A stretch of DNA of 64,000 nucleotides from a virus: positions 1 through 64,000 of the IMG/VR virus record IMGVR_UViG_3300031772_000014. One strand, given 5' to 3'. The notes under the pieces are model-generated. The model ran no database searches, was not told the DNA's origin, and was given only the letters and a program-made list of their open reading frames with translations. Below are positions 55,110-60,331 of the stretch, one piece after another. The position numbers and the translations under genes are program-made. Within the stretch, counting starts at the first letter, position 1, and each line of letters begins with the position of its first letter.

Positions 55110-57443
55110 TAACGGTACCGGGTAACCGCCGGTCCTCTCCCAGAAGATGTTGTTTCCTAGCTGCCTGCCCACGTAAACGTCGATGGCCCCATTCGGCCCA
55201 AAGGTCGGGGTCAAGAAGATGTCCAGTAGGTTGAAGAACGTGGGGACCGGTACCAGGAAGGCGCTATCGGAGAAACATCCGATGAGAACCAATGAAAGGC
55301 TGGTGAGTGGGTTCTGTCGGTGGATCACCAACCTCACCTCGCTATCGATCAGCGCATTGATCGACACGTTCCTGAGAGCAACAACCAGTAGCGGGCTTGG
55401 ACCCACGTACGAGGTAGAGATGAAGATGGACAGACCATCGTAGGTGGGGACCGGGACGATGTTGCTCGCGGTAACGATGGTCTGGATGCTCTGGCCAAGC
55501 TGCTTGCCGGCCACGATGCCGTTGTAGTTGTTGAGCGGCCCGTACGCCAACACGTTGCCGGCAAGGGCCAGGATGTTGCCCTGCTGGGAGATGATATCGT
55601 CGATGAAGGTGGCGGACTTCATGGAGATGCTGCCCACGAATGAGAAGATCCCACCAGAGCCGGTAAGTATCGACTTGGTTTCGTACGTGGACCCGGTGTT
55701 GCCGACCGACAACACTCTGTTGAAACCACCCCACGCGAAGGCGGTGTCGTTGAAGGGATCTTGACCTTGCGCGTATACCTGCATGAACCCGGTCGGTACT
55801 TGTTGAAGCAGCAAATCTGTAACCTTGGGGGGTTGGGCGTACACCATTCCCCGCGGGATGCTGCCGAACGGAAGCGAGCCGTCTGCCTCTCGCTTCTCGT
55901 CGATGCCATCACCCACGAAGAACTCCATGCTGAGCCAACGCGTGAGTAGTCCCTGGGTGCCCGTGAGGACATCCGGTTGCTCCCCATCGACAGACACAAT
56001 CAAGCAGTTCTGCGCCGAAGAGGCGAAGAGCTTCTCGATGAAGTACGTCCGGCGGCGTAGCGCAAGGCCGGTCGAGTCGACGTGCTCTATCTCGAGCATG
56101 TCGTACCCAACAGAGATGGCCGAGATGCGGTCAGGACCAACCGTCAGCCAGAACCGGTTTGGTGCGGTCATGGTCAGAAGGGTTCGCCCCGGTACCGTGA
56201 CCTTGTCGAATACCACCAGGGAGTTGGGCGTGATGGCCGTGAAGTTGCTGGACTCTGAGGGCTGCGTGTCCGTCCGGGGAGATACCCCCAGGAACTTCGC
56301 CATGCCCGGAAGCGGGGCACTGTGGGTAAGGCTGATCAGAGCGTTGGTCAGCGAACGACCACCGTAAGCCACGAACCCAGAACCGCCGCCGAAACCCTTC
56401 TGGGCACCAGGACCGGAGATGTCGAAAAAGTCATCGAGATGCGCGGTCCAGATGGCATCCAGAGGATCCAGGTACATGGTCCGGTACGCAGAGTCGGTGT
56501 TCCAGAAGTCACGCTGGCTCCACCCGCTCATGGCCGGGCCGGTACGCTGGTACCAGCTACCACCACCGGCCTGGTTGTGCTGGATGGCCGGCAGCCCGCT
56601 GTTGGTCGGTACCGTCGCGGGGATGTCGGCCACGGTACCCCGGCGATACCGCTCGTTCATGCCACTCAGCGCCAGGTCCCAGACCGTCGACACGTAGGGG
56701 CTGTTCCACCACGTGGATACACTGGGGGTTCCGTTCAACCTGAAGAGCTGCTTGACTACTTGATCCGCGGCCCCGACCTGCCGGCGCCCGATGGGGTCCG
56801 GGGTAGCGGTGCTGAGGTACCGGTGGACCCGGTAGTGAACCCGGAAGACCGACCAGGGCCGACCAGGCACGATGGGGACGTTGAGGTTGAGCGTCACCGC
56901 GCCGGCGGGAAACCCGGAACCGATCACCGCGCCCGCGATGCTCGCCACCACGACCTTCGTGGCCGGGGGCACGAAGAGCTCATTCCCGAGCGTGTCCGTG
57001 ACGACGAATAGTTCCTGCGGGCTCGTGGCAGGTGCATCACTCACAAACGGGAAGTCCGCGGCAGGGATGACCACACTGGTAAGGTTGCCAGGGCCTGCAT
57101 TGCTGTACCCACGGAAGGTAGGAACCGCAAAGCTGTTGTGGAGGAGGTCATCGAGGTAGTCGATGTTCTCCGCCAGGGCGCCATGGCCCCTGTTCGCGTC
57201 TGACGCGGTCGCGTCCTCCCCGAAGGCCCAGAAGTACGTGCCCTGGTTCGGCCCACCGATCTTCTGCCCCACAGCACCGAGGAAGTTGTCCACCGGGGCC
57301 GAGCCGAGACCACCCACACCACCGCTCGCGACGTTGATGTAGTCGTAGGTCTTGCCGGTGGTCTGTGCGGCCGAACCGCCAGTCGGAATCGAAACGGCGA
57401 AGAGCCAGGCGGGGTTCGTGAAACGGTGAAAGCGGGTGGGCAT
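55110..57443 (-). CDS. Tail fibre-like protein, paralog A (777 aa, ends at TTA)
   Basis: AGGAG RBS; collinear similarity with 58139..60331. Confidence 0.6.
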
Positions 57444-57453
57444 CTGCGGCTCC

Positions 57454-58128
57454 TAACGGGAGGGCTGCGAAGTCGATGACTTCGTGACCGATGATGTTGA
57501 CGAGGAGCACCGGCGGAACCCCAGCAAACCCCGTGATGGCGTTCACGAAGCTTTCGTTCCTGACCTTGATGGCAAGCTCGAAGGAAGTGAGAAAGCCTCC
57601 GATGGCCAGCGGGACAGCTACAGTTTCGAGCGTTCCTGGGATGGCGAGCAAGAGCGTCTGAGCGGCAGGTAGCGCGACACCCGTACTTGACCAGATGGCG
57701 CCGCCAAAGTCGTTCTTGGGGGTGGTGTCGTTACGACGAATCTCGATGAAGAACGACGCACCAGCGGTCTGCGGGTTGATGAGCCCGATAGCCCCACCGG
57801 TCAGGACTTCCACCTGATCGATGACGAAGAATGTCTTGTCAGTCGAGAACTTGTCAACCGGGCGAGAGAACTGAAGGATACGGGTCCAGAAGTTCGCAGG
57901 CCCAGGGTTGAAGAACTCCGTGGGGTAGATGAGCGCGAAGTCGTTCACCGCACCAGCCGCGATGTTGTTCTGTAGCTGTACCCGCGTCTGGATGCGAACC
58001 TGGTTGCCCGTGTACCCCCTGGGACGAGGAGGGTCTCCACTTCCGTTCACGCCCACAGGCGCAGGCGAACCCCCCGAGGTTGGGATCCACTGGTAGCGCG
58101 ACGAGTACCCTGAAGAGACCTTGGACAT
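57454..58128 (-). CDS. Tail-associated beta-rich protein (224 aa, ends at TTA)
   Basis: In-frame TTA directly before the RBS of the next gene. Confidence 0.55.
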
Positions 58129-58138
58129 GGTGGATACC

Positions 58139-60331
58139 TAACGTAGCGTTGTAACGTTTCACCGACATGAGGATCTTGCTCATACCACCAGCACCGTGGG
58201 TAACCAGGCCCGTGTAGACGTCGACGTACCCGACCGCGTTCGAGAACCAGCAGTCCGACAAGTTCTCGAACACGTAGTTGCCGGGCCATGCGCTCAAGTC
58301 TGCAATCTGCATTGGTGCACCGTCGTGTCGAATGACCCACGTGATCACGCGACCCATGTCGTTCGAGTTCACGTTCAACGACGGGAACGTGATGGCCACG
58401 ATGGGGGACGTGGTGGGGCCCACCGTGGAGTACTCGTTGTAGTCGGACGTCTCCGCGTCAGCCCCGAACAGCAAGGTCACGATGAACGGGAGGATGAACG
58501 TGGTCGTCGCCCCAGGATCCCTGGCCACGACCTTCTTGGCCTCCACGGCACCGTCGCCACGGAGCACGCCGTTGTCGAAGTACTTCCCGGTGACCGCGAA
58601 GTTCAAAGACGAAGTTCGGAACCCGCCCCACGCCAGGGCATTCGTCTTCCCGGTCTCATTTGAAGCGTAGAGCTTCGCGGAGTAGTCATTCCTGTCCGCG
58701 TTGGTTGGGATGGGCGTTGTATCCAACTGGTGCGGGGCCGCGTAGAAGAGCCCGTCGAACTTCAGCTTGCTGGTCGTCCCGATGTCGTACCCGGCCACGC
58801 CGTCGCTGACCCCGAACACCATCGAGCGCCATCGAATCGTGCAAGGCGTGTTGGGCAGGAACGTGGGGGTCGTGCCGTCCATGTTCTGGATCATGGCGAC
58901 CGTGCCGCTGAAGAGGTCCACGATCACGTACGTCTTCGGGGCAGCCCCGGGGGAGAGCTGGATCTCCACTAGGTCGTACCCCTTGGCCACGGAGGTCCGC
59001 CACTCACCGAGGACGTTCGCGGCCCAGAAGTCCGGGATCGACAGGATGACCCAGCAGTCCGCTCCAGCGTTGAGCAACACCGCCGCGGTGTCTTGTCCAA
59101 CGAACGTGAACGAGCTTCCGGGGATGATGCCGGACATCGGGTGGTTGGAGGTATGCAGGAAGGAGGAGTACCCGGACCCCTGCCGGTTGACCCCGAACCC
59201 AGTGTCGTGGGCCCCGTAGGTCATGCGGCGCTGCCCGTAGACCACGAACCCGGAGGAGCCTCCCTTGTGGAGGTTTCCCTTGTCCTCAATCCAGGCAGAC
59301 CAAAGAGCATTGAGGGGATCGAAGTACTCGAAAGTTGCACTTAGCTGGCTCAAGGCGCTCACCATCATGGGTGAGTGCCTGGATAGGTAGTTGCGCTCTC
59401 CCCAGAACCCGGGCTGTGCTCCGGGCGCCGCGTTCGCGGCGTTCGGGGTCATGTACGAAATGGGCGCCGGCACCGTGTCGATGAGCGGGTCGGTGTTCCG
59501 CAGCAACATCTGGTTGAGCCCGTGATGGTTCAACTGCCAGAGGCTGTGCTCTCCGCTCCCAACACCGTCGCCAGAGTACCAGGTGGAGTGCGCGTACGCC
59601 TCGGGCTTCCCATCAAGTCGGTACAGGAAGCGGGCCACCGCACCATCAATGCCGTTCGGGTACGGGCCATGAATGTCGGGCGTGATGAGCGCCAGGTTGC
59701 TGGCCCTACGGTAGTTGACGAAGATGCCCCCGCTGAACGGAGGGGTGGGCGTGAACCCGTTGAACGTGACCGTGACCGGGCCAGGCACGAACCCGCTCCC
59801 GATGGGGGACGTGCTGGCCACCACACGTAGGTTGTCGTTCAACGCAGGGATGAAGTACGCATCCGGGCTGAACACGCCACCGACAAACCCATTCGTGATC
59901 GTGAAGAGATCATCGAAGGTCTCCGGGCCAGACCCAAGCCACACGTATGACCCAGGCGGGAACGTGTATGAGTTGATAGCGGGACCGAAGAGCGGAGTGG
60001 CCACGAAGACAGACTCACGTACCCCGAAGACCTGGTGCACGACGTCATCTAGGAAGTCGGTGTTCTCCCCGAGGGCCTTGAAGCCACGATTGACGTTCGC
60101 GCTGTACCCCGGGTCGTCAAAGCCGACCCAGTACGTGAACGGCGTCGGCCCAACCAGCGGGGGAGGGTTCGCGAACGCCGTACCGCCACCACCGGTCGCC
60201 CCGGAGACGATGTTGACTCGGTCATAGACCACACCGCCCGAGGCAGGTTGAGGCTGCGAGGTACCGGGACCCAGAGGAATCGCGACGTACCCGGTCCAGG
60301 TCGGATCTACGAATCGGTGGAAGTTCGACAT
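58139..60331 (-). CDS. Tail fibre-like protein, paralog B (730 aa, ends at TTA)
   Basis: FHRF start and NRGFKALGENTDFLDD coiled motif; TTA 10 nt before the next ATG. Confidence 0.6.

Follow-up and report, generated by a model that had tools for sequence, protein, structure and literature searches.

TTA most likely serves as a fourth stop signal in a lineage of uncultured sediment phages

Introduction

Phages are known in which a stop codon, TAG or TGA, has been recoded to an amino acid, and the mitochondrial code of Thraustochytrium is NCBI table 23. Among organelles, UUA is used as a stop in labyrinthulean (Thraustochytrium) mitochondria and, together with UCA, in peDinoflagellate plastids, and both UUA and UUG are stops in the mitochondria of Marsupiomonadales and Pseudoscourfieldia (PMC12574857). 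Bacterial-type organellar release factors have repeatedly gained the ability to recognize UUA, and specific changes in RF2 or RF1 have been linked to it (PMC12574857). Our literature search found a UUA stop only in organelles (mitochondria and plastids) and none in phages or bacteria. Here, we describe in-frame TTA triplets at gene ends in an uncultured sediment phage, represented by a stretch of 64,000 nucleotides (nt) (the window) that covers positions 1 to 64,000 of a viral contig of 75,150 bp (IMG/VR record IMGVR_UViG_3300031772_000014; 61.6% GC). Three successive genes of its putative tail module, named A, B and C, end at such a triplet, and TTA is most likely a fourth stop signal for this phage lineage.

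As in the organelles, it is the same codon that goes from leucine to stop, and the change is recognized from a codon found solely at 3' ends, opposite the canonical stops of homologues. Since the organelle release factors are of the bacterial type, the mechanism proposed below could carry over. Unlike the organelle cases, ours concerns a double-stranded DNA phage and presumably a bacterial host, and the trait varies within one phage group. With the stop-recoded phages, our case shares the need for a non-standard code, standard gene callers producing wrong annotations; the direction here, however, is from sense to stop, and no phage-borne suppressor transfer RNA (tRNA) or release factor was seen in the records searched.

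Two further systems come from Streptomyces. In Streptomyces phage phiHau3 and two prophages, coding gaps led by UUA lie in the large-terminase gene, and bypassing was proposed for them (Smith et al., cited in Antonov et al. 2023, PMC10732093). As far as that citing account goes, the likeness lies in a phage gene with a rare UUA, a spacer of about 10 nt with a Shine-Dalgarno (SD)-like sequence, and a restart at a downstream codon. There, however, the gap splits a single conserved protein whose function requires both flanks, whereas here the TTAs lie at natural C termini, as shown for the terminase, polymerase and decoration protein, and the next open reading frames (ORFs) are separate genes with their own ATG. 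Upstream of Streptomyces adpA, UUA-G is located 5 nt before the start, and UAG in the +1 frame was suggested as the real stop (PMC10732093). The common features with adpA and bldA-type control are a very rare UUA in a high-GC setting, followed by G, beside an SD-like G-rich stretch ahead of a start. In Streptomyces, however, TTA is internal and is read as leucine when the tRNA is available, whereas here there is no internal TTA and most TTA ends have no stop in the +1 frame.

Results

Successive genes of the putative tail module end at TTA

We compared the phage with G001, a 94-kb IMG/VR contig that is the sole close relative, with G002 and G003, two other relatives that, like G001, end genes at TTA, and with G005, a complete relative using the standard code; the group consists of phages of about 190 kb. 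On the minus strand, the A/B junction reads ACG TTA GGTATCCACC ATG (TTA at 58141-58139, ATG at 58128-58126; plus strand at 58126-58143, catggtggatacctaacg), and the B/C junction reads CCG TTA GGAGCCGCAG ATG (TTA at 57456-57454, ATG at 57443-57441; plus strand at 57440-57459, gcatctgcggctcctaacgg). Both are as the initial annotation wrote them, in frame and with TTA 10 nt before the next ATG. It had also claimed that TTA overlaps an SD sequence; this held at the B/C junction, where GGAG directly follows the TTA of B, and at the A/B junction, only a weak AGGT was found. Three successive genes had been said to end in this way, and the third junction is that of C and D, which reads CCG TTA GGATCGAAC ATG at 55112-55098. 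Its 9-nt spacer keeps the frame, so that the standard code fuses C and D into one ORF of 1118 amino acids (aa).

According to the standard code (table 11), the ORFs run over 57854..60331 (825 aa), 57148..58128 (326 aa) and 54087..57443 (1118 aa), with overlaps of 275 nt (57854-58128) and 296 nt (57148-57443), against about 275 and 295 nt given earlier. With TTA taken as a stop, they become four abutting genes, A, B, C and D (Table 1).

Table 1. Coordinates of the tail-module genes, their junctions and standard-code extensions, and the other TTA triplets at gene ends
Feature	Coordinates	Strand	Remarks
Gene A	58139..60331	-	730 codons plus terminal TTA; fibre-like; downstream of baseplate genes
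TTA ending A (site 9)	58139..58141	-	In frame with A
A/B spacer GGTATCCACC	58129..58138	-	10 nt; weak SD match (AGGT)
Standard-code extension of A	57854..58138	-	94 codons; does not appear coding in that frame
Gene B	57454..58128	-	224 codons plus terminal TTA; partner protein without recognizable family
TTA ending B (site 8)	57454..57456	-	In frame with B
B/C spacer GGAGCCGCAG	57444..57453	-	10 nt; with SD sequence GGAG for C
Standard-code extension of B	57148..57453	-	101 codons; does not appear coding in that frame
Gene C	55110..57443	-	777 codons, then terminal TTA; fibre-like, paralogous to A
TTA ending C	55110..55112	-	In frame with gene D
Gene D	54087..55100	-	337 codons; TGA-ended, then GGTCACGAT ATG
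TTA ending decoration-protein gene	2107..2109	-	Upstream of capsid gene
TTA ahead of TAA	2669..2671	-	Five codons ahead of TAA
TTA ending large terminase gene	10005..10007	-	Same triplet is the TAA stop of a convergent plus-strand gene
TTA ending 419-aa spike-like gene	16382..16384	-	2 nt ahead of next ATG
TTA in fused beta/beta' RNA polymerase gene	17698..17700	-	Immediately ahead of TGA
TTA ending RusA-like gene (Pfam RusA)	51011..51013	+	Four codons ahead of TAA

The arrangement was the same in G001. Its A/B spacer, GGTCACACCC, follows a retained TTA, its B/C junction reads CCC TTA GGAGCGCTCG ATG, and its C/D junction, CCG TTA GGATTCAAT ATG, is in frame as it is here; the three spacers have the same lengths in both phages. 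All three junctions and their G001 orthologues read TTAGG. The TGA version of this layout exists in the same operon, as TGA GGCCACCTGA ATG before A and TGA GGTCACGAT ATG after D. The G001 orthologues of A (730 aa) and B (224 aa, 67% identical, aligned without a gap) also end at TTA, and the C terminus of a distant B homologue, P0124 (231 aa), aligns to the same end. Genes A and C are paralogous to each other, with 29% identity across about 600 residues.

Because TTA is one base away from TAA and all the data are metagenome assemblies, an artefact of sequencing or assembly had to be considered, for example a TAG or TAA wrongly read as TTAG or TTA. However, the A/B and B/C junctions were found without any substitution or indel in X2 and X3, which are independent metagenome assemblies from two other sediment samples and studies. 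The junctions also recur in the 67%-identical relative, and TTA ends were counted at 51 sites on four contigs (see below), so that an artefact has a negligible chance of being the explanation.

The standard-code extensions do not appear to be coding

If TTA were simply read as leucine, the genes would continue for 94 to 340 codons, overlapping or fusing with the next. The frames are indeed open under table 11, and public gene callers list forms of 825, 796 and 255 aa. We therefore compared composition on the two sides of TTA. In genuine genes of the contig, GC by codon position is about 0.58/0.45/0.83, and in gene A it is 0.55/0.49/0.83. The values for the extension of A were 0.76/0.55/0.54, and those for the same stretch in the frame of B were 0.56/0.54/0.75; for the extension of B, they were 0.84/0.61/0.52, compared with 0.60/0.53/0.83 in the frame of C. 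A coding score was obtained with a codon log-odds model trained on long ORFs. At the TTA of A, it fell from +0.54 to -0.55 as the signal moved into the frame of B; at the TTA of B, it fell from +0.34 to -0.73, with a shift of the signal into the frame of C. By these measures, the extensions after the TTAs of A and B do not look coding in that frame.

The extensions were not conserved either. That of A is 94 codons long here, 81 in G001 and 66 in a third variant from the protein database, that of B has 101 codons here versus 30 in G001, and their sequences are unrelated in the two phages. The third positions of B have diverged from those of G001 as fast inside the overlap with the A tail (0.49) as elsewhere (0.45), which indicates that the frame of the A tail adds no constraint. 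The interpretation of TTA as a stop in the initial annotation is thus supported by extensions that are off-frame and unconserved, as it is by orthologous ends at which TTA and stops are exchanged (see below). Standard decoding would have to account for tails that are off-frame, unconserved and variable in length, for a TTA that is never internal and for canonical stops at the same residue in relatives, and it is extremely improbable.

TTA marks coding ends throughout the contig

Only nine in-frame TTAs with coding sequence upstream exist in the contig, all at coding ends (Table 1). At each of them, either the coding signal ends or a canonical stop follows within five codons, and the endings of A, B and C are not a matter of chance. 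Among the 13,042 interior codons of long ORFs, TTA was found once, namely at the C/D junction. Regulation of the bldA type through internal TTA was considered as a candidate role and rejected, since there is no internal TTA here or in G001, G002 and G003.

Re-annotation with TTA as a stop had been proposed as a check. We called genes with a simple caller of our own, using either the three canonical stops or four (TTA added). Four-stop calling found 73 genes here (38 ending at TGA, 14 at TAA, 11 at TAG and 9 at TTA), and it raised both the total coding score and the coverage here and in G001, G002 and G003, but not in G005. The stop-to-start spacings of TTA-ended genes clustered at -1 and at 9-10 nt, within the range of those at TGA, TAG and TAA. 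TTA-ended genes numbered 18 in G001, 19 in G002 and 5 in G003; TTA accounts for about 12-15% of gene ends, and canonical stops form the majority. In all, 51 TTA ends were found across the four contigs, where the ordinary TAA and TAG stops are intact, and they occur in early and late genes alike. No extended motif was present around the 51 TTA ends. The base following TTA was C in 45%, G in 39% and T in 16% of them, and never A. TAG in the +1 frame was also considered as a universal stop; this idea was ruled out, most TTA ends not being followed by G.

In G002 (L095-L100), several genes overlap in a TTATG stop-start arrangement, for example at 78428, 79396 and 94956, the following gene being read from that ATG. 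The widespread TGATG and TAATG overlaps are built in exactly the same way. In G003 (L111-L113), with a GC content of 66.7%, 46 genes were called, with 0 TAA stops, 16 TAG, 25 TGA and 5 TTA.

A different arrangement was seen at 10005-10007, where the terminase gene and a convergent 239-aa gene on the plus strand both end on one triplet (TTA/TAA). A second convergent pair with a shared triplet is located at 93432-93434 of G001 (L010:13432-13434). A 3-bp shared end of convergent genes is possible only if TTA terminates.

TTA and canonical stops are exchanged at orthologous gene ends

We then compared gene ends with those of relatives. In the 56 orthologue pairs with G001, the C termini coincide once TTA is counted as a stop, and the partner of a TTA is TAA three times, TGA twice and TTA five times. 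The DNA polymerase (652 aa in both phages) ends as ..WVDAK TAA here and as ..WMDAK TTA in G001, where 190 open codons follow. A 190-aa gene and one of two 65-aa genes end at TAA here and at TTA in G001, and the other 65-aa gene ends at TGA here and at TTA in G001. The RNA polymerase gene ends as TAC TTA TGA here and as TAC TGA in G001, and the five remaining pairs have TTA in both. At the RusA-like gene, both phages have the TTA, and the later TAA found here corresponds to CAA in G001.

The fused RNA polymerase gene itself (17698-24093, minus strand) encodes 2131 aa with Pfam Rpb2 and Rpb1 domains and is 85% identical in G001. A 'timing switch', with a backup stop in enzyme genes and none in tail genes, was also examined as a candidate and was rejected as a general rule because of the G001 polymerase, whose TTA precedes 190 open codons.

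The comparison was then widened to more relatives. In the terminase gene, TGA, TAG or TAA stands directly after residue 609 in about 45 relatives, where TTA is found here, and in the decoration-protein gene, TAA, TAG or TGA stands at residue 175 in about 40 relatives, again with TTA here. The spike gene has a TGA in G006 at the residue of our TTA, and it ends one residue later in G005 and G003. Its junction reads TTA CG ATG here and TTA CAG ATG in G001; since the spacer has 2 nt here versus 3 nt in G001, the reading frame is not preserved across the TTA. Therefore, a canonical stop is found opposite TTA in the genes for the terminase, decoration protein, spike, DNA polymerase and RNA polymerase and in three small genes. 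For the ends of A and B, no orthologue with a canonical stop was found, so that the argument for these two sites comes from composition, non-conservation and the genome-wide equivalence of TTA and stops.

Taken together, TTA marks the end of the coding signal, swaps with TAA, TGA and TAG at orthologous ends and is absent from gene interiors. Judging from the sequences compared, translation in all likelihood ends at these TTAs.

Stalling or hopping at UUA accounts poorly for the gene ends

Termination at TTA had to be weighed against two readings in which UUA acts on the ribosome without being a stop. The first is that UUA is a hungry or unassigned codon: the host would lack or withhold tRNA-Leu(UAA), in a bldA-like manner, and ribosomes would stall at UUA and be released indirectly. 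At TTAG, an SD:anti-SD push of one base could place UAG in the A site. In the presence of the tRNA, ribosomes would read through and make longer or fused proteins, C-D for example, and the phage would thereby sense the state of its host. The tail module offers several points in its favor, since its three junctions and their G001 orthologues have TTAGG with an adjacent SD sequence, so that TAG lies in the +1 frame; at the C/D junction, both phages also keep the reading frame. A similar arrangement of UUA-G, SD-like sequence and start is found at the upstream ORF of Streptomyces adpA, with ribosome pausing (PMC10732093). The pattern does not extend to the other gene ends, however: only 39% of the 51 TTAs are followed by G, and those followed by C (45%) have TAC in the +1 frame, the rest having T (16%). 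In-frame junctions were not over-represented, and essential enzymes rely on TTA alone, the G001 polymerase having 190 open codons beyond it. Stalled ribosomes are moreover poorly released from intact mRNA, and tagging by transfer-messenger RNA would destroy the protein. A hungry codon is therefore an unlikely explanation.

The second is a UUA-triggered bypass, as proposed for the phiHau3 terminase, in which the peptidyl-tRNA would detach from the codon ahead of UUA, land about 10 nt further on and continue in the next ORF, giving A-B-C(-D) fusions. The coding gaps of phiHau3, as they are described in the citing paper, are likewise led by UUA, with 10 nt and an internal SD sequence (PMC10732093). 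At all four A/B and B/C junctions of the two phages, a look-alike of the codon preceding TTA is present in the next gene's frame, such as ACG..ACC at A/B here, CCG..CCC at A/B in G001 and CCG..CCG at B/C here. When all junctions were counted, though, look-alikes occurred at 8 of the 15 TTA junctions and at 39 of the 128 standard-stop junctions (30%), a difference that was not significant, and they were absent at C/D. The downstream ORFs all have an ATG of their own. For many TTAs there is no gene in which a hop could land, or the relatives have a canonical stop at that point, and TTA lies at the natural C terminus of the terminase, polymerase and decoration protein. Among the relatives examined, no fused A+B or C+D homologue was found, and B and D have no homologues in standard-code relatives, which argues that they are not fragments of a conserved larger protein. 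A bypass thus appears very unlikely, more so than a hungry codon.

The codon pair at the A/B junction (58142-58144 and 58129-58131) co-varies with that of G001 (L001 9985-9987 and 9998-10000), as a take-off and landing pair would; this is a single case and is not significant.

The TTA-ending habit is a derived trait within the phage group

Among homology-aligned codons, TTA was not found in 19,185 codons of G001, 13,176 of G002 and 7,975 of G003. In other group members, an aligned internal TTA faces L (42 times), F (15 times) or M, I or V (15 times), and one such internal TTA is located in a capsid gene. This indicates that TTA ending is a derived trait and not an alignment artefact, and judging from the aligned residues, the more distant members of the group read TTA as leucine. 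In G005, a single internal TTA was found, and none of its gene ends is credibly a TTA. On the capsid tree, our phage, L014 and L015/L016/L114 form a well-supported branch, and G002 is placed elsewhere with weak support, so that one or two origins are possible.

The contig carries genes for a capsid protein, a gpA-type terminase, a family A DNA polymerase, a DnaB-type helicase and the fused beta/beta' RNA polymerase, and its completeness was estimated by CheckV at 41%. At 75-94% identity, the capsid protein has more than 2000 kin in the protein database, and 413 IMG/VR contigs share it, many with a length of 185-200 kb. The capsid gene (939-2060, minus strand) is unusually conserved, the best 120 of the more than 2000 database proteins being 78-100% identical, and the contigs of its kin range from 44% to 67% GC. 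The cultured capsid relatives, Salmonella phage Arash and Vibrio phages, are only about 30% identical.

For A to D, megablast and tblastn searches against cultured phages found no relative, and searches of Pfam and PHROGs gave no family match. The putative tail assignment of these genes is drawn solely from synteny with an upstream gene for a baseplate-wedge protein (1358 aa, matching phrog_6) and from weak Atlas leads. A metagenome scan for B found no match, no RNA run was listed as carrying the sequence, and an AlphaFold model of B from a two-row alignment was unusable (pLDDT of 33).

Search for a UUA reader and for the host

We examined which component could read UUA. The 99 genes present in TTA-ending contigs and missing from two complete standard-code relatives contain no translation-related Pfam domain. 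Three tRNA genes are present in G003 at 20272-20503 (L112:272-503; Rfam tRNA, 42-57 bits). They have abnormal anticodon arms and none has the anticodon UAA; one has a GAAA tetraloop replacing the anticodon loop, one a 17-nt insert and one the loop GGATGGA. G005 has, at 97360-97445 (L105:17360-17445, minus strand) between tRNA-Tyr and tRNA-Arg(TCT), a tRNA whose variable arm is long and whose anticodon loop has 8 nt (ARAGORN anticodon 'actc').

Contigs bearing the capsid gene have been binned into metagenome-assembled genomes (MAGs) of eight lineages, one of them archaeal, which makes binning uninformative on the host. The labels of these MAGs (L114-L121) are Deltaproteobacteria, Edaphobacter, Myxococcales, Anaerolineales, Desulfatibacillum, Methanoregulaceae, Leptolyngbyaceae and Gemmatimonadota, and the phage-group contigs in these public MAGs are evidently binning contaminants. 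The MAG holding the TTA-ending contig L114 has TTA inside its genes and thus lacks the habit. In the Myxococcales MAG (G008), with 70% GC, there is essentially no TTA in the 107 kb sampled, which do not show the TTA-ending habit. A pattern for the Ser-Pro-Phe (SPF) region of RF2 was matched in 192 of 401 genomes from the phylum of this MAG; among the matches listed (150 of the 192), all keep the Ser, and the 209 genomes without the pattern cannot be judged.

Discussion

Only termination at TTA agrees with the whole of the comparative, compositional and gene-calling results. According to this reading, A, B and C would each end at UUA in the system that expresses the phage lineage, and the next gene would start independently at its own ATG 9-10 nt downstream, with an SD-like motif that is clear only at the B/C junction. 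The junctions would have the layout stop-GG-N7-8-ATG, as do their neighbours in the operon with TGA.

Since no tRNA, RF-1 domain or translation-related domain was found in the phage, we infer that the reader of UUA is supplied by the host. UUA termination in organelles is tied to changes in RF2 or RF1, so that the most economical idea is a host release factor that has been altered. The most likely device would be a release factor of bacterial type whose specificity has broadened, combined with loss of the tRNA-Leu(UAA) reader, and by this analogy we tentatively regard the release factor of the host as a candidate for the terminating agent. UUA may also be a true fourth stop of an unrecognized bacterial code, a possibility that we entertain with similar reserve; the hosts would then be without tRNA-Leu(UAA) and have a UUA-reading release factor, and the phages, as a sub-branch of a very abundant group, would have converted part of their stops to TTA.

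Several points weigh against termination at UUA. The orthologues of A, B and C that reach the C terminus carry TTA (G001) or, in the case of P0123, a homologue of A, a Leu aligned to the TTA of A, for which the codon is only presumed to be TTA. The terminating agent enters the argument entirely by inference: a search of seven phage records (this contig, G001-G004 and two complete relatives) turned up no RF-1 domain, and no tRNA gene was found in this contig, G001 or G002. The contigs are only 41-58% complete by estimate, and their missing portions could therefore encode a factor of the phage's own. Finally, G005, with the standard code and a similar GC content, is nearly without TTA. Because it is equally depleted, we set TTA depletion aside as evidence.

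Codetta, according to its authors, cannot detect sense-to-stop changes (PMC9825746). A UUA stop code would therefore not be visible to homology-based predictors of this type. If TTA is a stop in these phages, standard annotation is wrong at roughly one gene in eight, with false overlaps, junk C-terminal tails and false fusions, and the public entries of 825, 796 and 255 aa are artefacts. A bacterial UUA stop code, if true, would be the first sense-to-stop change outside organelles, and such a change would then not be confined to tiny organelle genomes. It would point to bacteria with altered termination and provide a sequence mark for matching phages to such hosts. As the trait differs between close relatives, the spread of a code change would become directly testable in this phage group.

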